From Schmidtea polychroa (lineage: Eukaryota), in assembly GCA_044892525.1 (NCBI GenBank), contig CM097885.1:806001-870000 (forward strand): a stretch of 64,000 nt of DNA, given 5' to 3'. Each line of letters begins with the position of its first letter. Position 1 is the stretch's first letter. The notes beneath the pieces were generated by a model. The model did no database searches and was not told where the DNA came from. It saw only the letters and a list, made by a program, of their open reading frames with translations. Made by a program: the position numbers and the translations under genes. Below are positions 20,295 through 64,000 of this stretch, one piece after another.

Positions 20295-20319
20295 CCCAAA
20301 AACGCCATCGCTCTGATAG

Positions 20320-22447: not shown

Positions 22448-22448
22448 T

Positions 22449-35627: not shown

Positions 35628-37289
35628 ATGAATTCTTTAATAGAAAACGTTATGAATGTTCGAGAAAAAATTCAGGAATTTGGTAAATTTTAATTTATTT
35701 ATTAATTAATTTATTAATTAATTTAGATAATATTAATGAAGACAATTTAAAATCGAAGATTAAAGGAAATTTGAAAAGAAAAAGTAAACATAATTTTTAA
35801 TTTATTAATTTAATTAATTAATAATTTAGGTAATACGAATAAAGAGAAAAAATATGTCAATGTGTCAATAAATCGAAATGAAAATTTACAATGTAAGTAT
35901 TGATTACTTTTTATAATTTAAAGGAAATTTAATATAATTTTTTATTTAAGTAAATGTTAATATTTTTAATTTAGTAAATTTTTATTTTTTAGTAAATAAA
36001 ATTTGTAAAATAATAATAATTTGCAAATTTTTGCGTAAACATTTATTAAAATCTTTCATTTAAATTATATATTTTTATTAAATTTTTATTTTATAGGTAT
36101 ACTTTATCCAAATTATTGTTCATCGAAAAAACATGATAATAATTGCCTTTCTATAATGGAGAATTATTACACGAAAAAATATTATAATAAAACTTATTTT
36201 ATATGTCCCGTATGTAAGACTAGTGACCCTGTAACATGTAGCGTTTTTTATAATAAACATAAAAATCATTTAGATAGGTTTAATTTTAAAAAAGATAGTT
36301 TTTTTAAAAGACCCTCAACTATAGAAAAAAATAATACAAATAAAAAAATTAAATTAGATACTTCTTCTTTTGAATCCCAGGTCGGATTAGAGGTTGAATT
36401 CAATGATGGATTGGTTGTTGAATCCCAGGTCGGATTGCCTTTTGTTGAATCCAATGATGGATTGGTTGTTGAATCCCAGGTCGGATTGCCTTTTGTTGAA
36501 TCCCAGGTCGGATTGGTTGTTGAATTCAATGAAGGATTATTCACTTCCTTTGATTCTTGGGATGGATTAAATATAATACAAATAGGTGGAAATGTATCGA
36601 CAATACAAAGAGATTTAAGAGGTACCCATCAAATATTAAGTTTAAATACTAGCGACTTAAATATAAAAGAAATAATATTTCCTGAACAACTAATAATAAA
36701 ATTACGAGATATTATTAACGAATTAGGATCCGTCAAAATTCAATTCGGAATAACAATTGAATTTGAAAAAGACGGGGAAATAAAGGATAATAATATCTCC
36801 AATTACGCAAAACCTTTAACTGCATCATTTTTTGATCAAGGCATCAAGGAACTAAATGAGAAAATAACTAATATTACAAAGTTAGGAAGCAATTGGATTA
36901 TAAAAAATATAACAGAAATCCACTTCACTATAACAAAAATAAGTAGGTTAAGTAGATTAAGTGGTAGGAGTTTCATTGAAACACCTACTTATCTAAAAAA
37001 TAAATATTGTTTAATTAATATAAAAAACACTGATGATTCATGTTTTTTATATAGCATTTCAGCTATTTTAAAATATGATGAAGTTAGTAGTTATGCTAGA
37101 AATAGGATATCGAGTTATAATTTATCCGACTTAGTATATAACCCGTTAGAATTACCTATGAAATTTAAAGACATTAGGAAATTTGAATCTAAAAATTCGG
37201 GTTTAATAATTAATGTTTTTTCATATGATAATAGCAAATAATTAACTGATAATTATGTATTAAAACATCCACATTTAGATATTATACAT
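35628..37289 (+). pseudogene. Duplicate of the spliced pPolB 5' half
   Basis: Offset +16995 from 18633-20294. Confidence 0.8.
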
Positions 37290-37314
37290 CCCAAAAACGC
37301 CATCGCTCTGATAG

Positions 37315-40300
37315 ACAACTTACCCGTAAAGGCAAAGAATTCAAAGTTTTGACTGCTTTAGCTAAAGAATCATTAACAAATTCATAAGAATCAATTCTTT
37401 TGCCTAATTGCGCAATCAAAGAAATAAATTTTTCAGTCGTTATTGGGATGCAACCTTAAGTCTAAATTTTTAATTTATTTAATCCGTATTTAAGTATATG
37501 ATGCATATCGTATCCCTTCAAGTTGTGAAATACGATAGGCAAAATTTTATTTATTTTCTTATTTTTGTTACATGTGCTACAAGCTGCACCCAAATATTTC
37601 CCCGTAAAATGATCGTGATCTCTAACAGGATCAACGATAGATTTCATACAAAGATAACAAACAGATGCACTAACAAATTGACGTTGTTCAATTTTCGTTA
37701 ATTTAATCATAGGTTTCCTACCCATTTTATAATAAAAAGGAAGAACCTTATTTAATACTATATCCTCTATAGCACTTAAAAAACTCTCGACGCAATCTAA
37801 ACCTATGAACTGTTGATAAGATTTAGATACGTCAAAGTTATTTACAAGTAAAAGACCAGCAGATATTGTCATGTGTCGTTGGAAATGAACATTATCAGAA
37901 GGTAAAATAGCCTCAAAATCGGCATCAACTACAAAAGGAGGAGTTACTGTTTTCGACCAGTCAGTAAACTGCAATAATTTATTTTGAGGGAAAGTGTAAA
38001 GAGTTGTTCCTAATTGATTACGTTTACATAATATTTCATGTTTTTCCAGTGCGTGTTTGTACCTAAACATATTCAAACACCGATGGCACCATAATGAAGG
38101 TATGCGTGTAGGACAACTAGTGTTGATACCACAATTCAGTAACCTTTTTAAATTACTTATAGCAACGTAATGGAAATTGTTTCCTTTATTTAAAAGTAGT
38201 AAATTAATTACAGTTCCATTTAAAACTTTGGAACGATGTATAATATCTAAATGTGGATGTTTTAATACATAATTATCAGTTAATTGTTTGCTATTATCAT
38301 ATGAAAAAACATTAATTATTAAACCCGAATTTTTAGATTCAAATTTCCTAATGTCTTTTAATTTCATAGGTAATTCTAACGGGTCGTATACTAAGTGAGA
38401 TAAATTATAACTCGATGTCCTATTTCTAGCATAACTACTAACTTCATCATATTTTAAAATAGCTAAAATGCTATATAAAAAACATGAATCATCAGTGTTT
38501 TTTATATTAATTAAACGATATTTATTTTTTAGATAAGTAGGTGTTTCAATGAAACTCCTACCACTTAATCTACTTAACCTACTTATTTTTGTTATGGTGA
38601 AATGTATTTCAGTAATATTTTTATATTCCAACTGCTTCCTAACTCAGTAATATTAGTAATTTTCTCATTTAATTCTTTAATGCCTTCATCAAAAAATGAT
38701 GCAGTTAAAGGCTTTGCATAATTTGAGATATTATTAACCTTTATTTCCCCGTCTTTTTCAAATTCGATTGTTATTCCGAATTGAATTTTGACGGAGCCTT
38801 ATTCGTTAATAATATCTCGTAATTTTATTATTAGTTGTTCAGGAAATATTACTTCTTTTATATTTAAGTCGCTGTATTTAAGCTTAATATTTGATGGGTA
38901 CCCCTTAAATCTCTTTGTGCTGTCGGTACATTTCCACCTATTTGTATTATATTTAATCCATCCCAAGAATCAAAGGAAGTGAATAATCCATCATTGGATT
39001 CAACAACCAATCCGACCTGGGATTCAACAAAAGGCAATCCGACCTGGGATTCAACAACCAATCCATCATTGGATTCAACAAAAGGCAATCCGACCTGGGA
39101 TTCAACAAAAGACAGTCCGTCCTGGAATTCAACCTCTAATCTGACCTGGGATTCAAAAGAAGAAGTATCTAATTTAATTTTTTTATTTGTATTATTTTTT
39201 TCTATAGTTGAGGGTCTTTTAAAAACACTATCTTTTTTAAAATTAAACCTATCTAAATGATTTTTATGTTTATTATAAAAACGCTATATGTTACAGGGTC
39301 ACTAGTCTTACATACGGGACATATAAAATAAGTTTTATTATAATATTTTTTCGTGTAATAATTCTCCATTATAGAATGGCAATTATTATCATGTTCTTTC
39401 GATGAACAATAATTTGGATAAAGTATACCTATAAAATAAAAATTTAAATAACGTCATCGATATCGATATCATATTCTCCAAAATCTTCTCCAACATCTTC
39501 AATAAATTCTTCCTTATCTTCTCCAACATTTTCATCAAATTCATCTCCAACAATTTCTCCAACATTTTCTCCAATAATTTCTCCAACATTTTCTCCAATA
39601 TTTAATTCACTTAATCTTACATGCCTATATGCAAGACTAGTATTTTTCCCCACCCAAACCCTTTTGTCATCTTTGTTAGTTAGTGCTATTTTATTATTTT
39701 TAATTGTAAAAATTTGATGATTTTTGTTTGTTAATTTTGTTTGAGGAATCGAAAAAATTTGATTAGTTTTATAACAATCCAGGTATGACTGATGTTTTAT
39801 GTCACTACCTTTCAATGTTACACCTTTAGCCTTTTTTGTTTCTTCATCACCCAACAAGCTATAACACTTGGCTCTAAGAAAAACCCATTCCTTATATTTA
39901 AGACCTTTATTCTCGTCTTTGAACTATCCAATGACAGAATCAAGGTTCTTACTATATAAGGAATAACAACTTTTGTAATCGAAGTATGTAAAAAAATTTT
40001 TTCGAATCATTGCAGGTAAAAGAACCTCAAGTTTACAGTTAATGACTTCGAGGAAAAAAGAGTCTGTATCACCTGCAACGATATTAATTTTATTAACAAA
40101 TTGATAAAAATCAATGAATCTTAAGCTTATTTTGCCTAAATGCGCAATCAAAGAAATAAATTTTTCAGTCGTGATTGGGATGCAACCTAAAGTCCAATTT
40201 TTAAATTTGTTTAAACCATATTTAAGAATATGGTGCATATCGTATCTCTTCAAGTTGTGAAATACGATAGGCAAAATTTTATTTATTTTCCTATTTATGT

Positions 40301-41030
40301 TGCATGGGCTACAAGCTGCACCCAAGTATTTCCCAGTAAAATGATCGTGATCTCTAACAGGATCGACGATACATTTCAAACAAAGGTAACAAACAGATGC
40401 ACTAACAAATTGACGTTGTTCAATTTTTGTTAATTTCATCATAGGTTTGCTACCCATTTTATAATAAAAAGGATGAACCTTATTTAATGCTATATCCTCT
40501 ATAGCACTTAAAAAACTCTCGACGCAATCTAAACCTATGAACTGTTGATAAGATTTAGATACGTCAAAGTTATTTACAAGTAAAAGACCAGCAGATATTG
40601 TCATGTGTCGTTGGAAATGAACATTATCAGAAGGTAAAATAGCCTCAAAATCGGCATCAACTACAAAAGGAGGAGTTACTGTTTTCGACCAGTCAGTAAA
40701 CTGCAATAATTTATTTTGAGGGAAAGTGTAAAGAGTTGTTCCTAATTGATTACGTTTACATAATATTTCATGTTTTTCCAGTGCGTGTTTGTACCTAAAC
40801 ATATTCAAACACCGATGGCACCATAATGAACGTATGCGTGTAGGACAACTAGTGTTGATACCACAATTCAGTAACCTATTTAAATTACTTATAGCAACGT
40901 AATGGAAATTGTTTCCTTTATTTAAAAGTAGTAAATTAATTACAGTTCCATTTAAAACTGTTTTCGACCAGTCAGTAAACTGTAATAATTTATTTTGAGG
41001 GAAGGTGTAAAGAGTTGTTCCTAACTGATT
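37315..41030 (-). pseudogene. Duplicated minus-strand pPolB fragments
   Basis: ORFs 37462-38631, 39444-39857 and 39924-40808 match those in copy 1. Confidence 0.9.
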
Positions 41031-41149
41031 TTTTATGTGTTTAGTTAATGTTTATATGTTTTATTATGTGTCAAGTTATTTTTATGTGTTTAGTTAATTT
41101 TTATGTGTTGTATAGTATTTGGTTGAAATAATAATATTATTATTAATCT

Positions 41150-45276: not shown

Positions 45277-48200
45277 TCAGTCATTAAGCAGGTGTTCTCT
45301 CAGAATGTGGTAACTACTAATCACGGCAGCTGTGCACGCTTTTCGTGCCAGTCCAACTATTTCGGATTATGATAGGCCTATTTTACTTAAGACTTGGTTG
45401 TTATTGCAATCCCATGACCCCAGAGTACCAATAACAAGGGCAGAGATAGTTGCTTTAGCCTTATGTGCCTTACCGATGTCAAGAGCCAAATTAGCATATT
45501 TGATGTAGTTATTTCTTGTCGCCATTTTAAAGTTCTCCCTTTGTTCATATGGGACCTTAATGTCAAGGATATGGATGTTATTATTTCTGGAGGATTTTAT
45601 AACTAAGTCAGGTTTAAGAGTCGATGTCACCCCTTGTGGTGTAATTTCAATGTCAAGATGAAAGTTTAGGTTTGAAAGGTAATCACAGACCGCTTCAAGA
45701 ACACGAGAGTGTTTATTTCTTCGCGCATTAATCTTCACCGGGCAATGGTTAAAGATATGAGCCTGTGTTTCAGGATGAGAGAAGCATTGTCGACAGAGTA
45801 TTGATTTTCCAGATTTGAGCCTATGAGGAGTGAAGTTGAGTTTTATGAGGTTATTACGAGCCTTGATAAGGAAGAAGAATTGAGCATCATTTAAAGTGTC
45901 CGTTTTCAGGAGGAAGTCAGCGGTGCTGCTATTAGTTATAGAGTTTGCAATATGACCTTGATAGGAAAGGGACATCCATTTTTCTGCATGAATGAGACCG
46001 ATAATGCTGTGTATGTATACCATATTTTCTACGGAGTAAGTCAGCTGATTTTCGAAATTTAGTGAAGATCGAGCGGGTTGGGAAAGATTTGGACGTGTTA
46101 CCATTAATCCAAGATAGAGCTGCTTCAAGGTTACCTTGACCGCGTGCAAGTGCAAGTTCGGAGAGGATGAGATTACGAAGAGGAAGATCAGAGGAATTTA
46201 ATGCACGTGCAAGGTGTACAATGCTCTGAATTAGGTACTCATCAATTGTAGCAGTGAGGCCGATTCCACCCATTTTAATGGAGGCGTATAAGAAATTATT
46301 ATTAATTTCAAGGAGTTTATCACCTAGAGAGAGTTTAATCAGTTTTCTAAATCTGTTGTCGAAGCCTTTTTGGGGAGTGCGATCCTTTATTATACTATCT
46401 TTATGGGAATCGAGGACATTATGAAGAATTTCACAGTTACGAAAGGGAAATATAAGTCGTGAGTGGATGAAGATTTTGATAGCATTTATCTTTTGAGAAG
46501 GGTGAAGATGTGAGTTTAATATTTTTTCGGAGTCTTTAATAGCAAGATTAAGAGGTTCATCAATGTTATGCCTTTTTGTACAAGAGAAATCAACTCCAAG
46601 ATATCTGTAGAAGTTAGAGTCATCCACCTTAGGGATAGTTTCGTCGTAAAGTTTAATCGGGTGGTAGTTAAACTTATCATCAAGGTGAAAGTAGCCAGAT
46701 TTTGAGGGTTTGAATTTAAGATTAGCCTGTGAAGCTAGGCGGACAGTTTCAAGAAGAGCGGATGTAATTGAGGAGTATGAGTTAGAAATCAGTACGATGT
46801 CATCGGCGTACGCTAGAATACCTACATTCATATTGCCAAATAAAAAACGGTGCGAGATTAAGATATTTTTAAGAATATAATCAATAGAAAGACAAAAGAG
46901 AGTCATTGAAAGTGGGCATCCTTGTTTAACCCCTTTCAGAATAGGAACAGTCTGCGAAAGTTCTCCTTCACAGTCGAAGATCGTTTTAACATTTTCGTAC
47001 ATGTTATTAATAAGTTTAATGGTGTTAGGATCAAGGCCCATTGTAGATAAGGTGTGCCAGATAAGGTCATGTAGTACAGAGCTAAAGGCGTCAGTGATGT
47101 CCAGCCATATAATATGAAGGTCTGTCTTGTTACGTAAAGAAGCAAGCGCATCCATCGGGGGCACCGATTGCTTTCTGATTATTAGAAATGAGGTTACCCT
47201 GCTTAATCCAACCAAGAAGTCTGTTATTAAGGAGTGATGAGAAGATGCGGTATGCTGTATTCATAACAGAGATTGGTCTCCACGAACTAGCCTCATGGCT
47301 TGTCTCGTTCTTACCAGATTTAAGTATCAGTTTTGTACGAAAGGTTTTCCATTTAGAGGGACAGATGGAGTTTCTTTGGATGTTGTTGCATAAGGATAAT
47401 ATAAGTTCAAGGTCAGGTGAGATTTTCTTCCAGTTAGCAAGAGTGATAAGATCTAATCCTGGAGCAGTGTTATCAAGATTTGAAAAGATGTATTTTATTT
47501 CGTCAATGTCAAAAGGGGTTGAAGAGTAGTGGTGTTATAGGGCTTAATATTGATGGAAGAAGGGCTATCAGTTGGGTATTTAGATTTAACTGTCTGCAAT
47601 GATGCGAGTCGGCCGGAGGCCGGCGAGCTGAGTGTTTTCTCGTGTTTAAATTACAATTAGAATTAATTAATCTATAGTCATTATCATAAATTAATTTGCT
47701 ATTCTTATTATTTAGATTAGAGATATTGCCACTTAAATTACAATTAGGGTTATTTAATATATAGTTACAATTTAAATTATAATCATCATTAGTTAAATTA
47801 CTATTCTCATTAATTAAATTAAAATCGTTGCAATTTACTTTACAATTTGAATAATTCAAGTTATAATCGCTATAGAAATTTTGATTATAATTACCTTTAT
47901 TTCTATTATTTATAATGTGAATCCTACGAGCTGGGCAGAAGGATTTCCACGAGGCATTGAATAGGTCTTTGGGTGTTTCGTCTGTAGTCCTAGCTTCTTT
48001 ATTTCCATTATTAAGAGTGTGAATCCTACGATCAGGGCATAAGGATTTCCATGAGGCTTTAGATAGGTCTTTGAATGTTTCGTCCGTAGTCTCAGATTCA
48101 CTGTAAAGAGGTCTGGCAGGATGGGCATTACTGTTCAGGTCTGAGGAAGCATTCGCATATTTGTTCGAGATCTTCCTAGCAGGACAAAGTCTGCTGTTCA

Positions 48201-49379: not shown

Positions 49380-51478
49380 AATAAAAAGTTAGTAAAAAGC
49401 CATCACAAGGCACAGTAAGTAATATGGGTAAAAAGACCACATGATTATCACAAACATAACAGTATAAATGAGTACACAAGTAATCGTAGTAATAATTATA
49501 GTAATTATAGTACTTAGTAAATAGTAATAATTATAGTAATTATATTAGTTATAGTAATAATAGTACCATCCCGAGGTATAATAAGAATAGGATCATTATG
49601 CTAAAAACAAATAAAGTAGTAGATGTTAGTAGATATAGTCGGTATCAAATTACAGTATATATAGATAATTATATACAATAGGATATTATACAGGCAAATA
49701 GTAAAAAATTCATTCTATATTGTGTTAAGTATATGGTCCATGTAAATTTTATAGCTAGCTATTACTGCTGTTTTTATGCATTTTTTTGCAAGTGCGTGTA
49801 TTTCCTTATCAGTGAGGCCTATCTGGGTAAGGTGTTTGTCGTTTTCAGTGTCCCACGTGCCCAGAGTTCCTACTATTAAAGCGGATAAGGTCGTTTTGGT
49901 TTTATTAATTTTACCGGTCTCTAGGGCAAGGCTCATATACTTATCACGGTTATTATTGCGTGCGAGTTCAAAATTCTCAAGCTGGTCATAAGGGACTTTT
50001 ATATCTAATAAATGAATTTTATAATTAGGTCAGGTCTAAGTGTGGTGTTTACTCCTGGTGGCGCTCTCTCTACATCAACATCGAATTGTTTGGATATTAG
50101 GTATTCTAGTGTTGTATCCAATACATGATTGTGTTTATTTCTCCTTGCATTTTGGGTGTGTGTGCAGTGATTAAAGATATGTGCATGTGTTTCCCAGTCT
50201 ATCTTACATAGTCTACATAATATATTTTGATTTTCCTTGTGTCTATTTATACTATAATTTAGACTGAGACTATTATTACGGGCTTTAATTATTGGTTGTC
50301 AGTTAATGTATGCTCTTTGATAAGGTATGCTGCTAACTTATTATTTCCTATTGTTTTTGCAATATGTCCCTGATGAACCATATTGTGCCATTGCTCAGCA
50401 TACCATTTGCTAGTAATTGTGTGTAGTGCAGATGATGTAGAGCTCATATTTTCGTTATTTATATAATTTATTTCGTTATTATAATTAATTTCAAGATTAA
50501 AAAGTCCCTTAATTATTATTATTTTACAGGTAATGTTAAATTTTTCGCGTATTCTTTTGGCGGAATCCCTAAATTTAGAAAAAAATAGTAATGGTGCCAC
50601 TAATATCACCAGTAATGTCAGTGTTTAACCAGTCAAGTGCTTTATTAATATTAATATCTTTGTTGTGATGTCTAAACTTAACAGTTTCAATTAATTCATG
50701 TACTATAAAATCTCTCATTTTAGTATCTGTGGAGTTTAATATTTTAATTAAGTATGTAATGCTTTGTATTAAATATTCGTCGATAGTTGGTGTGATTCCT
50801 AAGCCTCCTCGAGAGCAACTCGCATAAATGAAATCATTATTCATATTCTGGTGTATGTCTTGTAGTGCGTTCTTAATCAGTCTTTTAATTTTCTGGTCAA
50901 AGCCAAGTTGTTTATCGAGTTGTTGAACTACTCGAGTTCTATTGCAATCCAGCACCATATGGTTTATTTTACATGTGCGAAACGGAAAAATAAATCGCGA
51001 GTGTATAAAAGTCTTATATGGATGGAGTTGTTGTGCTGGATGTAAGTTTGAGGTGAATATCTTTTCAGATTCGGCCAATGCCTTATTTAATATGTCATCT
51101 ATGCTATGCTTACTCTTTTCACCGAATCTTACTCCTAAGTATCTATATATATTATCTTTATCAATTATGGGTATTATTTCATTATAGATCGTTAGTGGTA
51201 TGTCAGAATGATTTTTATGGATCTGGAAGTAACCGCATTTACTAGGTCGAAATTTTAATTTGGTCTTATAAGTCAGTTTAGTTATATGTTCTAATATCAT
51301 CCTAATGTTTTCTCTTGACTCAGATATTAGAACAATGTCGTCAGCATACGCCAATATGCTGACATTGTATTGTTTATATATTAGTGGGAATTTATCAAAT
51401 ATGTCTCAAAGAATAAAGTCTATTGCTAGGCAAAATAATGTCATTGACATAGGGCAACCCTGCTTAACTCCGTTATAT
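49380..51478 (-). mobile_element. 5'-truncated degenerate RLE non-LTR retrotransposon, element 2 (distinct subfamily) with 3' UTR
   Basis: GVKQGCPMS, AYADD, YRYLG, a CCHC finger at about 50160-50220 and the C-terminus SALIVGTLGTWD. Colinear with element 1 but clearly divergent from it. Confidence 0.9.
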
Positions 51479-51599
51479 GGGATCCGGATAAAACACCGAT
51501 ACAAAAAACTCGAAATTCTAACTTCGAAAACAAAAACACCGAAAAATATAATTTCGAAATGCAAAAACATCGAAAAATAAAATATCGAAAACATAAACA
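51479..51599 (+). mobile_element. Short DNA-transposon-like terminus (GGGATCCGG... with CGAAA subrepeats)
   Basis: Interrupts the RT at YNGVKQG and contains 6 CGAAA motifs. It is itself cut at the Polinton terminus. Superfamily not determined. Confidence 0.35.
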
Positions 51600-52070
51600 A
51601 GTAGGTAGAAGTGAGCCCACGATGACTCATCGGCAAGGTCAACTTAAGGTCATAGAAAATTTTGAGGTCAACTTAAGGTCAAATTTTAAGGTCAATGTCA
51701 TTTTCAGGACAGTTTAAGGTCAATTTCAGCCATTTTAAGGTCAAACTCTGAGGTCAAAGTCGATTTTAGGCCATTTTAAGGTCAAATTTTGAGGTCAAAG
51801 TCGATTTTAGGCTATTTTAAGGTCAACTTCTGAGGCCAAAGTCTAATTTTTCCAAATTTTAAGGTCATAGAAAATTTTAAGGTCAACCCCCCTACCCCCT
51901 ACCCCTATTTTTAAGGTCATAGAAAATTTTAAGGTCAACCCCCCTACCCCCTACCCCTATTTTTAAGGTCATAGAAAATTTTAAGGTCATAGAAAATTTT
52001 AAGGTCAACCCCCCTACCCCCTACCCCTAATTTTAAGGTCAAATCAAGGTCAAAAATTAAAAATTTTCTA
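51600..52070 (+). repeat. Putative left terminal inverted repeat with (T)AAGGTCA subrepeats and three CCCCCCTACCCCCTACCCCT blocks
   Basis: 5'-AGTAG start. About 20 AAGGTC(A)-type units. The first 16-21 nt match other termini in the window in motif and spacing. The partner TIR and TSD are outside the window. Confidence 0.65.
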
Positions 52071-52466
52071 AGTCCATTTAACGAATTACTTTATAGAAAA
52101 TTTTCAAAGTCAAAACACGTTTTAATACTACGTTTGCAAATGTCTTTGTTACTCGTGCATTTGCATTGCAAATGTCTTTGTTACTCATGCACTTGTATTG
52201 CATATGTCTTTGTATTACACACCTTAAGGATAGAAAAATATTTCTAAGCGAGATCTAAAGTGAATGTGTGTAAAGGGCAATAAATAAGGGTAAAATCAAA
52301 ATTTTTTAAGAAAATACATGTAATTTGATTAAAATTTATGAAAACTATATATATATATTTGTTTTATTTTGGTCAGATAATCTATGTGTGTCTGTATATG
52401 AAAACATTGATAAGGAGCAATAAATATCAAATCAAATCTCTTATGTTTTACATATAACTATATTAA

Positions 52467-52500
52467 CCAATCAGAATCATAACCAGTATTAGTATAAATA
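52467..52500 (+). promoter_or_regulatory. CCAAT box plus TATA box upstream of the Bcl-2-like gene
   Basis: CCAATCAGAATCAT at 52467-52480 and TATAAATA at 52493-52500, about 30 nt before ATG 52528. The same 14-mer recurs at 54936-54949. Confidence 0.55.
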
Positions 52501-52527: not shown

Positions 52528-52833
52528 ATGTCAAAATCAAATTTTGCAGAAAATATCTTAAAAGGTTTGGTTAATGAGAATATCGCACAAGCCTCAGTTT
52601 CCTAGTTAAACAAACTGAGAAAATCATTGAGGGAAACCATGTCGACTACCAAACCATGCTTGATATAGAATGCCTGGAGACGAAGAAATTTTATTTCAAT
52701 AGGATTTTCGATTGTCTATTCGACGACCAAATGAAGTGGACCAGAATAATCATAGGTTTTACCTATATGAAGATTATTATAGAAAAAGGTCTATACGATG
52801 TTGACCATTATTATCTGTGGTCTCAAGAAGTAA

Positions 52834-52908
<75 letters not shown>

Positions 52909-53094
52909 TTGTAGATAGTCAAATCCAAGTTTTCGCCATGGATCGATGCCAATGGTGGATGGCACACACTAGTCGAACTTGCCCAGAACGCACAAGAAAT
53001 AGAGCAAGCCAAAGCAAAAGTCAAAAGTTATATGCGATTAGCCTTGGGAGTTGTTGTAATATATGTAATGTTTAAATATTTAAATAAAAGTTAA
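52528..53094 (+). CDS. Bcl-2 family protein; two exons (intron 52830-52914); probable 1-nt frameshift near 52577
   Basis: Exon 1 ...RIFDCLFDDQMKWTRIIIGF... is BH1-like. Phase-0 intron GAA|GTAAAT...TTTGTAG. Exon 2 IVKSKFSPWIDANGGWHTL (BH2) ... LALGVVVIYVMFKYLNKS* (tail anchor). The ATG at 52528 is one frame off from the 52578-52829 reading frame. Confidence 0.85.
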
Positions 53095-53136: not shown

Positions 53137-53540
53137 CTAAAATTTATTAACACATTCACATTCATCATCTCCGCATTTCATAACATTTTCAACGATATGA
53201 TCTATACAATCGTTATATACACGCGGTTCGGTATACTTAATATTTTCAGTTATATAATCCGTAAATTCCTCCTTAGGTTCATCAATTTCTTGAATGATTT
53301 CCTCGTCATCTTCTTGTGTGTTTCCTTCATTAATTTGTTCTGTTATTTCCTCATCAGTTTCATCAAATCTTGAATCTTCACTCTCGGCTACCCAGTCTAT
53401 ATTTAATGCATTTGAAACAGATAATATATCCTCCATTTTTACACCAGATATTTCTGCTAATTTTGCCAACAAAAAGTTGATTAAATGTTCTAAACAATAA
53501 ATAATTCGATCATTAACTAACCATATTAGCCTTTTTCTAA
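53137..53540 (-). CDS. Hypothetical acidic protein; 5' end unresolved (possibly spliced or decayed)
   Basis: 111-aa E/D-rich ORF ending KCGDDECECVNKF. The frame stays open a little upstream of the track start, with no ATG. Confidence 0.45.
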
Positions 53541-53704
53541 CGTCATTATTAACACTTTAAAACTATAATGTAAGTTTGTTTATAGATTGTCTTTTTTAAA
53601 GTTTGCATGTATTTTGCATTGATATTGCAATTTCCTGGTTAAGTAAATGAAAAACAAATAGGACAAAATACATTTATTAAAAACAATAAATATAGCAACA
53701 TTTA

Positions 53705-54127
53705 TTAAAATAGCTGTGAAAGTCTAGCAGACATAATTTTCCAAATTGGAGAATACACATCATTATTATCAACTTTATATCCCTGGATTGCTATTGTTAT
53801 ATACCAATTTTCGTTTTCTTTAAAGCTGATTTCATCAAAGGAATCATAAAATCTTGCATATCGGTTGTTGAACCATGCATGTTGATTACATGATAGATTT
53901 GCATCCAACCGTTTGAAAACCTCATCAATAGATTTAACATCTATCATTGAAAGTGTGCCGGATAAGAATTGAAATTGAGTAGAAATTAGCTTGATCGGTG
54001 ACACAAATTTCATATTGATTTCTTCTTTTAAAAAATACATTTTGTAGTCGTGGAACATTTGAACAGGTTGTACAAGTTCTGCAACAACAACCTTTGGTTT
54101 TTCTGTGCTTGATATTTTCTTGGTCAT
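53705..54127 (-). CDS. Conserved Polinton accessory protein, possibly an OB-fold ssDNA-binding protein
   Basis: 140-aa ORF with an upstream TATA (54161-54170, minus strand). A decayed homolog at 2481-2905 shares KSIxxVFK and IQ(G)xKI...PIWKI. The SSB call is an inference from the beta-rich C-terminus. Confidence 0.65.
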   Translation of the reverse strand: MTKKISSTEKPKVVVAELVQPVQMFHDYKMYFLKEEINMKFVSPIKLISTQFQFLSGTLSMIDVKSIDEVFKRLDANLSCNQHAWFNNRYARFYDSFDEISFKENENWYITIAIQGYKVDNNDVYSPIWKIMSARLSQLF

Positions 54128-54314
54128 CCTGAATTATGATTGAATTGTAATGGTACAGGGTTTTTATACATATGACTATTGTTTATAAACCAATCAAATT
54201 GCAGTATGTCTTTGTTTTAATTACATTCAAAATGCATTGATGTTGCATTGTCATATGTTATATGTGTCATATTATTATTTTTATTGCTTTATTACTTTCA
54301 AACTAATTTCATTA

Positions 54315-55003: not shown

Positions 55004-55456
55004 TTAATTTAGTGATAATAAAAAATTTAAAAATTCTTTTCCTTCAATTATTGATTTAATTTCAGATATGATATTATCAACTATACATTTGTAATCAATA
55101 TTTTTTATTCCAAGAATTACTATCTTACCACTAGCGAATATATTTACACACATAGGGTTATATTTTATATATCTCAAAGCTGGAAATAATTCTGGTTCGT
55201 AAACACATGGTATTAATTTAGCCAATTCATTTAAATTACAAGAAAAACCCATATAGGAAGTTACGGTTATCGATTGTATTTTTAAATCATAAACATTATA
55301 TTCACTAGCTTTGATTATTTCCTTACACCCCATAATTCTACATTTACCAGTTTTGAAATATATTATGGGATATTTTTTACTTCTATTGATAAGTTGTTGT
55401 GGTTTCCCCATTTTTGATACATCAGATTTTGCTCTGTAATTTATATTTGAAAGCAT
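55004..55456 (-). CDS. TATA-binding protein (TBP)-like protein
   Basis: Two TBP repeats: IYFKTGKCRIMG, and KIQSITVT...NLNELA...YEPELFPALRY...NIFASGKIVILG. Confidence 0.85.
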   Translation of the reverse strand: MLSNINYRAKSDVSKMGKPQQLINRSKKYPIIYFKTGKCRIMGCKEIIKASEYNVYDLKIQSITVTSYMGFSCNLNELAKLIPCVYEPELFPALRYIKYNPMCVNIFASGKIVILGIKNIDYKCIVDNIISEIKSIIEGKEFLNFLLSLN

Positions 55457-55481
55457 TTTAATGAAATAATTATAAAACTCA

Positions 55482-55522
<41 letters not shown>

Positions 55523-55585
55523 TTTAAAACGGAGTTCATTTAAATTATCAATATAAACAATAATTATGTAGTTTAAATTTAAAAA

Positions 55586-56223
55586 ATGAAATTACGAAAT
55601 GATGCAGTATACCAAATCGTTGGTCCAAGCGGTAGCGGAAAAACATTATTTGTTTGTAAAATACTAAAATCAAATTTATTCAAAACAAAATTCAACAATA
55701 TTTATTGGCATAGGGGCGCCGACGAAGAACATGGATTGGCGCAATCAAGTTTCTGTCAGTTGAAAAACATGAAAATAGTAAAGGGATTTGATAAAAACTG
55801 GTCCAGTCGGTTGAAGAAAGGTGATGTCATCATTATCGATGATTTATACCAAGAAGCCAATAAAGAAAAAGATTTTAATAATTTATTCACAAAAATCAGC
55901 AGACATGTCGGTGTAACAGTTATTTTCATAACACAAAATCTATTTCATCAAGGTGGTGCACATCGTACACGTAATTTAAATGTACAATATTTAGTTATTT
56001 TCAAGAATCCTAGAGATGCAACTGTCATTGATTTTCTTGGACGACAAGCATACCCTAATAACCGTAATTTTCTTATCAGTGCATTTCAAGATGCTACTAA
56101 AATACCGCTGGATATATATTTCTTGATTTCACACAACAATGTCCTGATGATTTACGGGTAAAAACTGATATTTTCAACCCAAAAGGTGCCATGGTTTATA
56201 AACAAAATTCAAAACAAAGTTGA
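55586..56223 (+). CDS. A32/FtsK-like genome-packaging ATPase; frameshift near 56105
   Basis: Walker A GPSGSGKT, Walker B IIIDD, ISRH and ITQN motifs. The expected C-terminus GYIFLDFTQQCPDDLRVKTDIF continues in another frame to TGA at 56221-56223. Confidence 0.92.
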
Positions 56224-56235
56224 AACATATAAAAC

Positions 56236-56724
56236 ATGTTTTCAAAAACAAGGATAACAAGGAAGAAAGAACCAAAAATTCCACCAACCACTAGTTATAC
56301 TCCATCTAAAGAACTTGTTACTGAAAATTTTCCTGCAAAAAATCTTATTTCGAAAAATCCTAAACCTAAACCTAACCGTAAAACCAGTAAGAAATTAAAA
56401 GTTGTTAAAAATCATCGGAGTTTCCCGTTTTTTAATACATTGTTAAAGGCACCGAGTATAAAAAGAATGAATATTTTGCAATCATTTCCAAATTTTGTTG
56501 TCGATGATTTACTCGATATTATACTTAAAGTAGTCAAAGGCAAGATTAAAATCAGTAAATCCAAAAAGCATATATTGGGTAAACATAGGAAACCTTTGTT
56601 ATCATTAGTAAATAATAAAAATCGTAAACAAATGAGAAAAATTATATATAAACAACAAGGCGGATTTATTGGTGCATTGATACCTTTGGCATTATCATTA
56701 TTAGGTGGAGTAACACAGTCATAA
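56236..56724 (+). CDS. Basic virion core protein (adenovirus pX/pVII-like), putative protease substrate
   Basis: 162 aa, K/R-rich. Ends QQGG|FIGALIPLALSLLGG, a di-glycine adenain-type cleavage motif followed by a hydrophobic tail. Confidence 0.7.
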   Translation: MFSKTRITRKKEPKIPPTTSYTPSKELVTENFPAKNLISKNPKPKPNRKTSKKLKVVKNHRSFPFFNTLLKAPSIKRMNILQSFPNFVVDDLLDIILKVVKGKIKISKSKKHILGKHRKPLLSLVNNKNRKQMRKIIYKQQGGFIGALIPLALSLLGGVTQS

Positions 56725-56785
56725 ACAATGGGAGCTAATCCTTCATTACCTGACATTAAATTTAATATTAAATCTTCTTGTTGTA

Positions 56786-57173
56786 ATGGAGAAGATTTGG
56801 ACAAACCCAGAAGACGAAGCGGGTTTCGGTGGAGTCGCAAAATTAAAGACAAGAGTTCCAAATTCGAAAAAGGAAACCCAGAAGTGGTTATCAGACCAGC
56901 TTGCGTACAGTTTGAACAAACCAATGCAGAAACGATTCCCAACAAGAACATATAAAACATTTGGAATAAACGATTTATGGCAAATGGATTTGATGGAGAT
57001 GATACCATATTCAAAAATTAACAATGGTTATAAATATATTTTAACATGTATTGATGTATTCAGTCGGTTTGCCCGAGCGATTCCAGTCAAGGCAAAATCT
57101 GCAGATAAAATGTCCAAAGCTATTAATAATTTATTTAAAAAAGGACATCCTAATAACTTGCAAACAGATTTAG

Positions 57174-57232
<59 letters not shown>

Positions 57233-57871
57233 TTTTATTTTTTAGGTAAAGAATTCTACAACAGTAAAGTCAAGCAAATCCTCAATAAACTGAAAATAAA
57301 CCATTACTCAGTATATTCTCAATACAAAGCAGCTTATGTTGAAAGATTTAACCGAACATTGAGAGATAGATTAAAGAAATTATTTGTGCATCAAGGTAAT
57401 AAAAAATGGGTAAATGTTTTACCAAAAATAATAACCAGTTATAATCATTCATCACATCGAGGACTGAATGGATTAAGACCGATTGATATCACTTCAAAAA
57501 CATTCTATTCTAAAAAACATGTAAAAATTGCAAAACCTAAATATAAAGTAGGTGACCATGTTAGAATTAGTAAAATTAGTGCATCACCATTTATAAAAAA
57601 TTTTGATACAAATTGGAGTGATGAAGTCCTTGTAATTTTGAAAATAAATACTAGCCAGAGTCCTGTAATGTATGTCATTAAAGACAATGATAATAATGTT
57701 GTACAAGGAAAATTTTATGAGCAAGAATTACAAGTTATTCCTCCTCCAAAAGTATTTAGAATTCAAAAAATATTGAAAACTAAAAAGGTCGGCAAGGATA
57801 AACAATACTATGTCAAATGGCATGGATATCAAAACCCATCATGGATATCAGAAAAAGACCTAGTAAAGTGA
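56786..57871 (+). CDS. Retroviral-like (RVE) integrase with C-terminal chromodomain; intron 57174-57245
   Basis: Motifs WQMDL, IDVFSR, QTDLG^KEF and VERFNRT. Chromodomain FRIQKIL...QYYVKWHGY...SWI. The poly-Ile run in the ORF track is a 72-nt GT-AG intron. Confidence 0.95.
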
Positions 57872-58884: not shown

Positions 58885-59239
58885 TTCTGATATTATTAGT
58901 ATGTATAGTGATAGCCAATCTGGCGGTGAATTACCATACTTCGTTGGTAAACAGTACGGATCAGGATGGCTAAAAACAATTGGGAGATTTGCACTTCCTA
59001 TTCTTAAACGTATTGGTAGTTTTGGTATGAAAACTGCAAAAGATGTAATTGTGAATGAACAGAAAATATTACCATCCCTAAAATCAAATGCTTTATCTGA
59101 ATTAGGGAAGGTTCTACCAAGTGTTGCTGGTATGTTTCAAAAAGAGTCAGTCCCTGAATATGTTCCAAAACGTAAAAGACATGGAATATCGCGTATAAAC
59201 AAACGAATGAAAGGACATGGAACTATATTTGCAAAATGA
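58877..59239 (+). CDS. Small core / membrane-active virion protein
   Basis: QSGG and QYGSG motifs, then an amphipathic helix WLKTIGRFALPILKRIG and a basic tail. Lies between the two capsid genes. Confidence 0.75.
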   Translation: MANSDIISMYSDSQSGGELPYFVGKQYGSGWLKTIGRFALPILKRIGSFGMKTAKDVIVNEQKILPSLKSNALSELGKVLPSVAGMFQKESVPEYVPKRKRHGISRINKRMKGHGTIFAK

Positions 59240-60456
59240 TTTGTGGTAAATCCGAATTATGTATATTTGATAGACCATCGCCTCAAGCGGTAATAGAATT
59301 TGGCGCCTTTGAGGAAGTTTTTCCTATGAATTCAATTACCGATAGTAGAAATGATATCGAGTTTTATATTAATGGTTCGCAAACTGAATATTTAGATTTG
59401 AACGATACATTATTGACTATTCAGATAAAGGTTGTAGATAAAGATAGAAAGGTTTTGGATGCCAATGCAGATGTAATACCGAACAATTTCCTGTTTCATA
59501 CTCTTTTTAAAGATGCAGTGTTGGGATTTAATAATATCAAGATTGAGGGTGGAAATAATACATTCATTCACAAGGCTTTGATAGAAACTATTTTAAATTA
59601 CAATTCTGATACTAAAAATACCTGTCTTACACCTATGGGTTATGCAGCAACAGATGATGAAAGAAAAAAGTGGGTTAAAGGCTCAAAAATATTCACTATG
59701 TGCTCATCATTACAACTCGACTTTATGGATCAACCGAAATATTTACTTCCTGGAGTTAATGTACATATTAGACTGAAAAGATCAGATTCTGCATTATCTC
59801 TTACTAGTGCAGGTGCACCAATATGTCAATTAGTTGATGCAAAATTATTGGTGAGAAGAGTTCGAGTGGACCCCTCAGTATTAGCTGGTCATCAATTGGG
59901 TCTTAATTCAAAACATGCAATTTATCCATTAAAGACAAAGGAAATTGTACAATTCGCTATTGCTAAAGGTGCTTCATCATTCTATAAAGAACAAATATTT
60001 GGTGACAGAAGAATGCCTAATTTTATCCTGATAACATTTCAAAGTGAAACTCAATATAACGGATCATATACTACATCCAGCTCAATTTTCAAAACCTTTG
60101 GTGTTACATCATTGACTTTGTCTAAAAATACCGATTATAGAGAAACATATACTCAAGATTTCGAAAGAGATAATTACTGTGCTACATATATGCAGAGTAT
60201 TGTTAGAAATTTGGGTTATTTAGATAAAAACTTAAATTGTGGAATAACTCATGAAGAATTTAAAACCAAATACCCATTTTTTACATTTGTTTTAGCCCCC
60301 GATTTTGATTTAAATCAGAGTCAATTACCACAAAACGGGAATTTACGACTGGATATAAAGTTTGCAAGAGCCATTACTGAACCGGTACATGTTATTATAT
60401 ATGGAGTATTTGAAAATGAAGTTCAAATTACTGCAAATAGAACTGTGCTAGTATAA
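59236..60456 (+). CDS. Major capsid protein (double jelly-roll, hexon-like)
   Basis: 406 aa with KSELCIF, YLDLNDTLL, QPKYLLPGV and GNLRLDIKF motifs typical of Polinton major capsid proteins. ATGA overlap with the upstream gene. Confidence 0.93.
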   Translation: MICGKSELCIFDRPSPQAVIEFGAFEEVFPMNSITDSRNDIEFYINGSQTEYLDLNDTLLTIQIKVVDKDRKVLDANADVIPNNFLFHTLFKDAVLGFNNIKIEGGNNTFIHKALIETILNYNSDTKNTCLTPMGYAATDDERKKWVKGSKIFTMCSSLQLDFMDQPKYLLPGVNVHIRLKRSDSALSLTSAGAPICQLVDAKLLVRRVRVDPSVLAGHQLGLNSKHAIYPLKTKEIVQFAIAKGASSFYKEQIFGDRRMPNFILITFQSETQYNGSYTTSSSIFKTFGVTSLTLSKNTDYRETYTQDFERDNYCATYMQSIVRNLGYLDKNLNCGITHEEFKTKYPFFTFVLAPDFDLNQSQLPQNGNLRLDIKFARAITEPVHVIIYGVFENEVQITANRTVLV

Positions 60457-61512: not shown

Positions 61513-64000
61513 TCATTCGTCTGCAGATGATTCATCAAGAGGCAAAATATTATTTAATTCATTATCTAAAATATTATAATGCCCATATGCGAAGCTCTTG
61601 TTCTCTTCAACCCAAACCCTTTTATCATCGTTATTTGTAAGTTCTAAATGTAAATAATTGATGGTTTCGTGTACCAAACCGGGATTGATTCACCTTCGGT
61701 ATATGCATTCCAAGATAACAATCCACATACGATTGATGTGTGATTTCTGTTCCCTTTAATGATACACCTTTGGCTTTATTTATAGTATCATTATCACTAG
61801 TTAGCAAACTATAGCATTTGGGTCTGAGGAATACCCATTCTTGATATGATTTGCCTTTGTTTTCGTCCTTGAATTTCCCAATTACAGAATCCAAATTTCG
61901 TGAATATAATGGATCTGTAGGATCGTAGTTGCTGGTGTCTAACAATCCGTCAGCAATCATTGCAGGAAGTAATTGTGATCGCAATTTGACATATTTACAT
62001 TCGAGGAAGAATGAGTCTGTATCCCCGGCTATGATATTTATTTGGCAATCGAACTGTGCTCGATATTTTGACAGTTCAATATATTGTAGTTCATACATTC
62101 TAAGTTTAGATAAGTCTAGCACTGTTTGACCAATGTAGCTAGGCCTATCTAAACAAACTACATCTTTATTCAGCAAAAGGGCAATCAAATCATCAGCAAT
62201 TTTAATTGAACGTCTAAATGTTGGCTTTGAAGTGTATTTAACCAATTTTTCGGCATTGTTGCACAATCTCAGATTTATTCTTTTCTTCAGATTCTCCACT
62301 GTCTTGCCGTAAACACTATTATTTAAAAGTTTATAAAAATCTCTATCTAAACTATTTTGTGATTCAGCTCGAAGTTGGGTATTTGTGTTGATATAATCCT
62401 TCAATATCGGCTTTTGTGTAAATTTTATTGCCCGATGTATATTGGTGACTTCCACTCCAAGGGCCATATATAATTTCAAAAGTCTCCAATGAATAACATA
62501 ATTAGTTTTCGCATGATGGGTTAATAATAATTTTGGTATATTTGAATCTGGTGGACACATTTTCTCTGCTGCGACTGGGAAATCATCTAATAGGTCGTGG
62601 ATATTTGACGGTATGACTAAATCAACTTCCAATGTGTATCCATAAGTTAAATTTTCTAGTTTGGAACTAATACAGTCAACTAAAATGGATAATAATTCCA
62701 CTTCATTATATATCCACTCAAAATCGCTACATGGCAAGTATTGGCTTAACGCCCACCCATACAGGTTGTTTATATCGATATAAAGCAACTCTGTTTCATC
62801 ATCTGTTACTGCGAAGTGTTTATTTACAAATGTGAGACCACCACGGATCCCACCCTCGAAGAAATTATACATCTCCATGTCCATCAGTAATTCCACTGGT
62901 TCTTCTAAGGTCATGAGCGCAGATGCCCAAGACATTCCAGGGATTCCAAAAAAATTGAGTGGCTCGAGTCCATTATGTGCTTTTGATCTTGCTCGAAATT
63001 GTTGGAAGAAATCGGCAAGTAAAAACACATCAAGTTTTAAATAAATTTGTAAATAATCCATTAGAGTTTCGCAACTTGTTTCTTGCCATATTTGTTGCGC
63101 TATTATATACTCTTCATTTGTAACGCCTTCCCAAATAGCGGGCAATTCATATGTTGTTTCTAATATTTCCTCACTTGTGGCAAAATCATAAGGAAAAATT
63201 CCTTTGTTGTTTATGATGGTTCCAGTATTGAATACTGAACGGGTCAAAGGCAATTCGTTCAATGTTTTTACTGCATTATGTAATGAAGTATTGACAAACT
63301 GATATGAGTCAATAAATCTTATTGTAAATTTACCCAGCCATGCTATCAATGTTAAAAATTTCTCTGTGCTTGTTGGTATGCAGCTGAGACTCCAATGATG
63401 AAATTGATTGAGCCCATATTTCAAAATGTGATGTAGATCATACCCTTTCAGATTATGAAATACGATGGGTAATGTTTCTCTGATTTTCCTTTGTTGATTG
63501 CATACATTGCATGAGGCTCCGAGATATTTGCCAGTGAAATGATCATGGTCTTTCACTTTCTCTGGCATTGGCTTTTTGCACAAGTAACAATTGACAACTG
63601 TGTGGAATTGCAGCTTTTCCTGATTTGTCAAAAATTTCATTTGACAATGCCCACTTGTCTTATAATAAACCTTCACTATATTGTTGACAATATTTTCTAC
63701 ATCCATCAGAAATCTGTATACACAATCTGGTCCAATAAAATGACTATATTTCGTTGACCCAGTAAAATTATTTACCAGTAACAGCCCCGCTGCTATAGGT
63801 AAATGTTTTTGGTGTTGTCTTTCATCAAGAGGTAAAACAGCTTCGAAGTCAGCATATATAACAAAAGGCGGAGTTACCATTTTTGACCAGTCATTAAATT
63901 TTAAATCTGAGTTTTCTGGCAACGTGTATAATGTTGTGCCCAATTGGTTTTTCTTGCATAAAGCTACATGCCTGTCAAAAGCATCTTCTCTTCTAAAACC
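61513..64000 (-). CDS. Protein-primed DNA polymerase B (5' part outside window); frameshift near 61640
   Basis: Exonuclease motifs IYADFE, HNLKGYD and YLKLD. EndoVII-like insert CYLC...DHDHFTG...CNVCN. Polymerase motifs YIDINNLYG, KLLNNSVYGK and AGDTDS. The tail LTNNDDKRVW...AYGHY is in a shifted frame ending at 61513. Confidence 0.96.

Follow-up and report, generated by a model that had tools for sequence, protein, structure and literature searches.

A Bcl-2-family homologue with one predicted intron as cargo of a Polinton in Schmidtea polychroa

Introduction

The Bcl2 homologues of adintoviruses and the Bcl-2-like modules of planarian retroelements are the background against which the gene described here has to be seen. 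Starrett et al. (2021, Virus Evol 7:veaa055, PMC8502044) state in their section 3.2 that adintoviruses encode Bcl2 and IAP homologues. In Supplementary Figure S2 of that paper, Bcl2 labels stand in maps beside 'Astyanax tetra cavefish' and 'Steinernema roundworm', and the paper places 'Oncoid' genes upstream of PolB. The giant Burro elements of planarians, which are Gypsy-type retroelements, have BCL2-like and BIR motifs (Grohme et al. 2018, as summarised in a passage of Arkhipova and Yushenova 2019, PMC6431247). Here we analyse a stretch of 64,000 nt from Schmidtea polychroa (GenBank assembly GCA_044892525.1, contig CM097885.1, positions 806,001 to 870,000), which is called the window below and in which all coordinates are counted from its first letter. 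It holds most of a Polinton/Maverick element, and our analysis supports the presence in this element of a Bcl-2-family homologue with one intron, carried as cargo.

The first-pass annotation of the window, made from the DNA letters, was not aware of such a gene as standard Polinton cargo. Its novelty was overrated there, as adintovirus Bcl2 homologues are already in print, in the section just cited. Within the accessible portions of the literature on adintoviruses, Polintons or Mavericks combined with Bcl-2 or with planarian/Schmidtea, no paper on a planarian Polinton Bcl-2 gene was found, and none of the words Schmidtea, planarian and TBP occurs in the part of the PMC8502044 supplement examined. 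What is new here is the spliced structure, the scale, the selection signature, the second Bcl-2-bearing element class alongside and a lone genomic relative.

Structure of the gene and state of the window copy

The gene starts with the ATG at 52528, and its parts are arranged as follows.

52467-52471, + strand: CCAAT box, 61 nt before the ATG
52493-52498, + strand: TATAAA box, 35 nt before the ATG
52528-52829, + strand: exon 1 of the Bcl-2-like gene, 302 nt, predicted to cover helices alpha1-alpha5, BH1 (..MKWTR..) and the first half of alpha6
52830-52914, + strand: predicted phase-0 GT..AG intron, 85 nt, with (ATT)n microsatellite fill
52915-53094, + strand: exon 2 with the stop codon, predicted to encode the rest of alpha6, then BH2 (PWIDANGGW), a linker helix and a tail anchor at the C-terminus
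53083-53088, + strand: AATAAA over the last codons, in the same place in six of six subfamily representatives

The open frame 52578-52829 contains LFDDQMKWTRII. It is followed by the stretch 52830-52914, which reads GTAAAT...TTGTAG and is nearly pure (ATT)n, and then by a second frame, 52915-53091, which starts IVKSKFSPWIDANGGW and ends at the stop codon 53092-53094. When open, the gene has 101 + 59 codons over two exons and a product of about 160 residues. The hydrophobic C-terminal run LALGVVVIYVMFK, with a Kyte-Doolittle mean of 2.29 over 13 residues, has R and K at its flanks and six residues after it; this tail anchor is kept across all subfamilies. The left terminal inverted repeat (TIR) has its inner edge at 52426, and the promoter starts 41 nt further in. 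The earlier description of a two-exon layout behind the ATG, with an 85-nt phase-0 intron and a terminal hydrophobic segment with a basic flank, agrees with the sequence and its frames, and the gene does lie just inside the TIR behind CCAAT and TATA boxes, as had been said.

Seven other loci were checked for the promoter elements. CCAAT stands at -57 to -72 in six of them (L012, L030, L031, L034, L037 and L032) and is absent from L035; TATAAA stands at -33 to -37 in L012, L030, L031, L034 and L037 and is absent from L035 and L032.

In the window copy the frame of the ATG and the frame of 52578 differ by one base. All 15 sister copies with a 303-nt exon 1 (15 of the 19 sisters have this length) possess one base more at about 52588-52591, and downstream of the shift a premature TAG follows at 52603-52605. 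Because of the missing base and the TAG to which it leads, the window's own copy is a pseudogene, inactivated by frameshift. This break is unique among the 20 copies examined. A frameshift had been suspected near 52577; it is real, and its place was about 13 nt off.

Copies and subfamilies in the genome

A DNA search of the 781-Mb assembly gave 65 matches from the 40 candidates scored out of 1591 first-look ones. With an open exon 1 as protein query, at least 150 scored matches were obtained (of 2366 candidates), all with E < 1e-42 and 67-100% identity, and 124 of 150 scored exon-1 matches have no stop inside. The close comparison covers the 20 best DNA copies, window copy included. Both exons are open in 10 of these 20, and the other 10 are broken by frameshifts or stops at different places; a search for intact copies in sister Polintons had been proposed as a check, and the open copies are its result. 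Four loci (L030, L031, L034 and L037) represent further subfamilies, with 63-72% protein identity to that of the window.

The exon-1 query gave two matches only in a collection of 5.8 billion proteins. Each consists of exon 1 with a read-through into the intron, on a short contig in ENA, and one of the two hardly differs from a subfamily of the same genome, for which reasons they are not independent species evidence.

On one chromosome arm, at C1:15.61-16.10 Mb, the gene region recurs at intervals of about 58 kb in at least eight copies, and seven of them have a single in-frame TAA in exon 1. This points to a segmental tandem array in which a copy broken beforehand was multiplied.

Relationship to the Bcl-2 family

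Judged from sequence, the spliced Bcl-2-family gene is probably selected cargo of the Polinton. The assignment to the family was made with Pfam PF00452 (Bcl-2), whose curated cut-off is 31.4 bits. For exon 1 alone PF00452 is the sole Pfam match, with E 0.011 in the window copy and 0.005 in an open copy (16.7-17.7 bits). One copy has an interruption divisible by three and can be read through, with X at the TAG and an insert of 29 residues of poly-Ile; it matches in two stretches at 24.1 bits (E 5.5e-5). Sister subfamilies read in the same way through introns of 45 and 51 nt reach 34.6 bits (E 2.9e-8) and 33.1 bits, and their loci were recovered also in a six-frame scan of the genome. The intronless paralogue L032 reaches 32.7 bits.

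A family profile built from 12 family sequences (A1) was compared with all PDB sequences and gave 146 matches at E <= 1, of which all 60 shown belong to the Bcl-2 family: Bcl-xL at E 1.8e-7, Bax at 7.5e-6, and also Bcl-2 and A1. The alignment to Bcl-xL crosses the exon junction, from before BH1 to beyond BH2. In a comparison of the profile with 1.84 billion representative proteins, 21 matches had E <= 1e-3; the PF00452 cut-off is passed by 19 of the 20 non-query matches, the exception being a 1016-residue protein. E-values of the profile against Bcl-2 proteins reach 1e-7 to 1e-20. The match to PF00452, which the first-pass annotation had named as a check, was obtained with the sister read-throughs, and Bcl-2 proteins were matched by the profile.

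The two motifs named there are also present. BH2 reads PWIDANGGW; BH1 reads KWTR, with W and R kept and with N replaced by K and G by T relative to NWGR, a deviation that had been pointed out at once. In a single hidden Markov model alignment both are aligned in order to BH1 and BH2 of Bcl-xL, and they are followed by the tail anchor at LALGVVVIYVMFK.

Nature of the interruption

If the two frames belong to one protein, then we can ask: is the stretch between them an intron or a plain microsatellite? The start GTAA(A/T)T and the end TTGTAG are kept in all 20 copies. The interruption is 61-157 nt long and varies in steps of ATT; its length is 1 mod 3 in 19 copies, and the single interruption of 3n length (87 nt) ends in an in-frame TAG. 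In L030, L031, L034 and L037 it measures 45, 51, 44 and 44 nt, is always GT..AG and falls at exactly the same codon, and in three of these four the microsatellite is absent. The position is common to six subfamilies despite the changes in length. As the lengths belong to all three classes modulo 3, exon 2 is readable only after removal of the interruption. Since three subfamily introns have no microsatellite, the ancestral state would be a short ordinary intron into which (ATT)n came later. The (ATT)n run is in all probability a secondary expansion in two subfamilies, within an ancestral intron of about 44 nt, and not a separate device.

The same was found from the side of the protein. In an alignment with 18 library Bcl-2 proteins and L032, the read-through intron forms an insertion that has no counterpart, and the exons abut free of gaps. 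L032 itself encodes 144 residues, is intronless and colinear across the exon junction, and sits among Polinton genes of a second lineage. Between subfamilies, where synonymous divergence (dS) is saturated or nearly so, the ratio of nonsynonymous to synonymous substitution (omega) is 0.03-0.11 in exon 1 and 0.11-0.42 in exon 2; both exons are under purifying selection. On this comparative evidence the intron is very likely spliced. We considered whether exon 2 might be a gene by itself and rejected this: its first two thirds contain no start codon, and in every Bcl-2 protein aligned it follows on directly from exon 1.

The carrier element

The element occupies 51600-69053, in all 17,454 bp, and runs past the end of the window; positions above 64000 are taken from the extended sequence. 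Its recognised parts are the following.

51594-51599, no strand: left target site duplication TAAACA, 6 bp; its mate at 69054-69059 (window-extended) directly follows the right end
51600-52426, no strand: left TIR, starting 5'-AG; its mate at 68165-69053 lies beyond the window
53137-53556, - strand: open reading frame (ORF) of 139 codons with no Pfam family; the product is acidic and has the motif ..CGDDxCECVN at its C-terminus
53705-54133, - strand: ORF of 142 codons with no family, 32% identical to an ORF that neighbours the intronless Bcl-2 gene in the second Polinton lineage
55004-55591, - strand: ORF with a single repeat of TATA-binding protein (TBP; PF00352, E 6.3e-15)
55583-56161, + strand: A32/FtsK-like packaging ATPase (PF04665, 29.3 bits, cut-off 22.8)
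56714-57871, + strand: retrovirus-like integrase (rve, PF00665), with weak rve_3 and chromodomain matches
59176-60456, + strand: candidate double jelly-roll (DJR) major capsid protein, from language-model look-alikes at 0.97; a lead only
61634-64000, - strand: protein-primed family-B DNA polymerase (pPolB) with an Endonuclease VII-like domain; the ORF goes on to 65533 and has 1300 codons

The element has hallmarks of a Polinton/Maverick: pPolB (PF03175, E 1.4e-28), the rve integrase, the A32-like ATPase, TIRs, AG..CT ends and a target site duplication of 6 bp. The integrase match to PF00665 (E 1.2e-7, 32.4 bits) lies 0.2 bits below the curated cut-off of 32.6. The TIRs, of about 830-890 bp, were found by matching 51599-52426 with 69054-68165 inverted, and TAAACA stands on both sides of the element. 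The definition of Polintons attributed to Kapitonov and Jurka in 2006 reportedly includes long TIRs, the 6-bp duplication and the 5'-AG..CT-3' ends. The look-alikes of the capsid candidate (426 codons) in the language-model search include a cluster named for a DJR-like domain. Capsid and protease ORFs gave no match to Pfam or to PDB sequences, and no protease was recognised; the adintovirus virion proteins hexon, penton and adenain were not identified by the Pfam, PDB sequence and language-model searches.

Homology with the 19 other copies begins at about 51600 and covers the gene in every copy. The gene lies inside the element in all 20 copies examined, which bears out its placing within the element boundaries beyond the window copy. 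The 139-codon ORF adjoins the Bcl-2-like gene also in L030, L031 and L037. Between the second-lineage Polinton and the window element, PolB is 66%, the capsid-like ORF 77%, the integrase 70% and the TBP-like ORF 48% identical.

Some further features of the element were seen on the way. The TBP-like protein has a single TBP repeat, as against two in cellular TBP, and its homologue in the second Polinton lineage (L039:894-1361, + strand; 48% identical) matches at E 2e-14. In the titles and the starts of abstracts returned by a literature search on Polinton and TATA-binding protein, no Polinton-encoded TBP was visible. Inside the left TIR, at about 51716-52041, a unit of about 52 bp is repeated in tandem, and the number of units varies between element copies. 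From the start of PolB to the right TIR (65534-68164 in the extended sequence, about 2.6 kb) there is no ORF of 90 or more codons except one inside the repeat; this region may hold short or spliced genes.

Relatives in the genome and phylogeny

From where was the gene obtained? The profile of the Polinton gene scores at most 21 bits against the five best host-like Bcl-2 ORFs of the genome and 13.4 bits against a segment of a Burro-type polyprotein; against L045 and the library protein P0005 it scores 88.7 and 90 bits. L045:354-809 (+ strand, at C1:268.54 Mb) is a lone intronless Bcl-2-like ORF of 152 residues with a Pfam score of 46 bits, and it is the nearest relative of the Polinton gene in this genome outside Polintons. 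No Polinton gene was found within 10 kb of it. L045 is either from the donor lineage or a domesticated Polinton gene.

A maximum-likelihood tree was built from 29 rows and 174 columns; it has several long branches, and long-branch joins were flagged. The three intron-bearing rows form a clade (100/100), which groups with L032, L045, P0005 and P0007 (93/84, not starred). This group lies within a starred half of 12 rows (97/92), and the five host-like genes are outside it. The tree was used solely to exclude recent capture of any of these five best-scoring host Bcl-2 genes, which score at most 21 bits against the profile and stand in the other half. In the phylogeny against host Bcl-2 genes that the first-pass annotation had suggested, the Polinton gene is therefore placed apart from those five.

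A locus search with P0005 found no Polinton; the one locus obtained is on an IMG/VR contig of 129.5 kb. On this contig, a large uncultivated viral genome, a Bcl-2-like stretch (L040:3206-3457) is 31% identical to P0005.

ORFs of about 3000 codons, present in many copies in the same genome, match PF00452 at about 29 bits. In one such region, L041 (C1:6418385-6419863), a Bcl-2 match of 26.9 bits, under the cut-off, is followed by a Monjiviricetes-type fusion glycoprotein domain (E 4.8e-8). These Bcl-2-bearing ORFs fit the published description of Burro, so that two unrelated element classes in one genome appear to carry Bcl-2-like modules.

Predicted fold and points that weigh against the proposed reading

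An AlphaFold2 model was made of the L030 read-through from an alignment of 29 rows. Its mean predicted local distance difference test score (pLDDT) is 85.7 and its predicted template modelling score (pTM) 0.75. In a Foldseek search against the PDB with this model the top rows were all Bcl-xL, Bcl-2 or Bcl-w with probability 1.00; the best E was 6.6e-4, and the template modelling score (TM) by target went up to 0.74. VIA-align superposed the model on Bcl-xL with a root-mean-square deviation of 2.3 A over 123 residues and a Z of 13.1, and a Z of about 13 is, by VIA-align's own note, near the level that helical bundles reach by chance. A Bcl-2 fold match, as the first-pass annotation had anticipated for AlphaFold and Foldseek, was in this way obtained for a modelled sister-subfamily read-through. 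The model alignment included true Bcl-2 proteins, so that the match in fold cannot be counted as separate from that in sequence; it corroborates the sequence evidence for a predicted Bcl-2 helical fold.

The circularity of this alignment and the chance level of Z weigh against the proposal of a spliced and selected Bcl-2 homologue, and so do several further observations. L030 is a sister subfamily, 72% identical in exon 1 to that of the window; the model of the window-subfamily read-through L011 (12-row alignment) had a pLDDT of 57.4 and was discarded, its most confident part being the 29-residue poly-Ile insert. The read-through of the window subfamily stays below the PF00452 cut-off (24.1 vs 31.4 bits), and this subfamily is 63-72% identical to members above it. 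BH1 is atypical, KWTR standing for NWGR, whose glycine is needed for Bax binding by Bcl-2, and a canonical BH3 (L-x3-G-D) is not visible in helix 2 in the alignment with the 18 library proteins. The window's own copy is the pseudogene described above. No run recorded as RNA carries the stretch; the junction 52829^52915 is absent from the contigs, all of which break at the microsatellite, and this speaks neither way on expression or splicing. Lastly, no result separates a pro-survival from a pro-death role.

Proposed mechanism and rival explanations

The CCAAT and TATA boxes next to the left TIR appear to give the gene a promoter of its own, and the host spliceosome would remove the short phase-0 intron. 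The product would be a tail-anchored protein of about 160 residues with the Bcl-2 fold and BH1/BH2, which could insert by its C-terminal anchor in the mitochondrial outer membrane or the endoplasmic reticulum. Its groove would there bind host death proteins bearing BH3, and the cell would survive while the element replicates or makes particles. By analogy with the family, such a pro-survival role is somewhat favoured. Three weak arguments bear on the direction of action: pro-survival proteins (Bcl-xL, Bcl-2, Bcl-w) head the matches both in sequence and in fold, helix 2 shows no L-x3-G-D BH3, and viral homologues are mostly inhibitors.

The opposite role is unlikely, in our estimate. A pro-death protein resembling Bax, Bak or Bok might permeabilise mitochondria late in order to release particles, or it might serve altruistic killing upon induction of the element. 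The Bcl-2 fold is common to killers and protectors, the tail anchor is compatible with both classes, Bax is among the PDB profile matches (E 7.5e-6) and a grouper iridovirus 'Bak protein' is among the viral fold matches. Against this stand the pro-survival nature of the best matches and the missing sight of a canonical BH3 in helix 2, a motif that Bcl-2-family effectors need to oligomerise; moreover, the viral Bcl-2 homologues characterised so far are mostly inhibitors. A little less probable still would be a Bcl-2 fold put to a non-apoptotic job, such as a block of innate-immune signalling, comparable with poxviral Bcl-2-like proteins, or an action on autophagy via Beclin. Here the main argument comes from BH1, which is off consensus in the Polinton protein (KWTR) and further off in the paralogues (ICWSK in L032, IKWSQ in P0005); because of this deviation, stronger in the paralogues, a groove unlike canonical BH3 receptors is suggested. 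The change of glycine to threonine speaks against an ordinary groove, whereas the BH1 arginine, partner of the BH3 aspartate, is kept. BH2 and both W and R of BH1 are also retained, as is the tail anchor, and poxviral signalling inhibitors have no tail anchor; in addition, the protein matches the cellular profile PF00452, and no other Bcl-2-like Pfam family was returned.

There is finally the view that chance ORFs or decayed remnants surround a plain microsatellite and that no functional spliced protein exists. The frameshifted window copy, the frameshifts or stops in 10 of the 20 copies and the silence of the RNA runs would agree with it. Yet the protein sequence of both frames is conserved among subfamilies with saturated synonymous sites, 124 of the 150 scored exon-1 matches are stop-free, GT..AG is found in 20 of 20 copies at a site that stays constant while length and sequence change, the intronless paralogue L032 bridges the junction, and the profile reaches E-values of 1e-7 to 1e-20 with Bcl-2 proteins. 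The evidence of copies, selection and paralogue already contradicts this view, and we give it hardly any credence. The reading of a spliced Bcl-2-family gene kept as cargo by the Polinton is the one retained below.

Sequences to the left of the element

Immediately to the left of the point where the Polinton is inserted lie remnants of retrotransposons, with reverse-transcriptase ORFs (RVT_1) at 45367-47260 (- strand, E 6.6e-23) and 50575-51405 (- strand, E 8e-8). Farther to the left the window has two near-identical sets of large ORFs at 19044-24065 and 36039-41051, 16,995 bp apart, with 400, 393, about 151-159 and 375-386 codons. In the first set, which was the one scanned, two of the ORFs match Endonuclease VII weakly (E 1e-4 to 7e-4). 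The arrangement resembles a tandem duplication, or else another large element that is present twice.

Implications and comparison with known systems

How deeply is the Bcl-2 homologue rooted in these elements? It occurs in six or more subfamilies that have the intron and in a second lineage that has none, with saturated synonymous sites between them and omega of 0.03-0.4. This would allow the tentative and rather doubtful suggestion that it is a long-kept core gene of the whole Polinton radiation in this genome and not an occasional cargo. If this is true, then the Polintons and the unrelated Burro elements together would indicate that mobile elements in general need to control cell death in an animal where stem cells renew both soma and germ line. 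The gene offers a well-documented Polinton apoptosis regulator, if it is one, for which promoter, intron, tail anchor, copy-number scale and selection signature are defined, and a testable handle on whether Polintons act as viruses that need the host cell alive. For annotation it means that hundreds of Bcl-2-like matches in this genome are parts of mobile elements, namely Polintons and Burro-like elements, and not of the host death machinery. It also means that the microsatellite-filled intron hides the gene from ORF-based callers, of which the exon-1 fragments in the 5.8-billion-protein collection are an example.

Compared with cellular Bcl-xL and Bcl-2 (PF00452), the Polinton protein has the predicted helical fold, the order and spacing of BH1 and BH2 and the C-terminal tail anchor. 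It differs from them in an identity of only 14-20%, in KWTR for NWGR, and in having no BH4 match and no long alpha1-alpha2 loop. The position of the intron is also different: it lies in alpha6, about 10 codons before BH2, and the conserved intron of animal Bcl-2 genes lies after the GGW of BH2.

The Bcl-2 homologues of large DNA viruses (gammaherpesvirus vBcl-2, iridovirus, A179L of African swine fever virus, ASFV) are similar as virus-borne Bcl-2 folds. The best matches in the viral structure library were F9 of Felid gammaherpesvirus (E 1.1e-3), a BCL2-like protein of Armadillidium iridescent virus (5e-3) and ASFV (6.7e-2). They are weaker than those of cellular Bcl-xL, and they come from another class of virus than an integrating element of 17 kb.

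Adenoviruses are related to Polintons via the capsid and polymerase lineage, and the first-pass annotation had drawn a parallel to adenovirus E1B-19K. As a functional analogy between small anti-apoptotic proteins this parallel can stand; a relation in sequence or fold was not borne out. No Pfam match to E1B-19K was obtained at E <= 10 for exon 1 or the read-throughs, PF00452 being the sole Bcl-2-type match, and the model of the E1B small T-antigen ranks 31st in the viral fold library, with probability 0.12 and TM 0.32.

The adintovirus Bcl2 (PMC8502044) is, like the present gene, an accessory gene of an animal Polinton-class element with Bcl-2 homology. It is known to us from one sentence and the map labels, the passages seen giving no intron, copy number, selection or structure, so that the likeness is one of description. 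Unlike in that account, the gene here is very likely spliced, and a single genome carries it in six or more subfamilies and in one more distant lineage of Polintons, with at least 150 scored exon-1 matches.

Burro is like the Polinton in being a mobile-element class with a Bcl-2-like module, the second in the same genome, and the fusion glycoprotein domain of L041 is as the passage in PMC6431247 describes. In Burro the Bcl-2-like module is a domain of a polyprotein, whereas in the Polinton it would form a free-standing tail-anchored protein with its own promoter.

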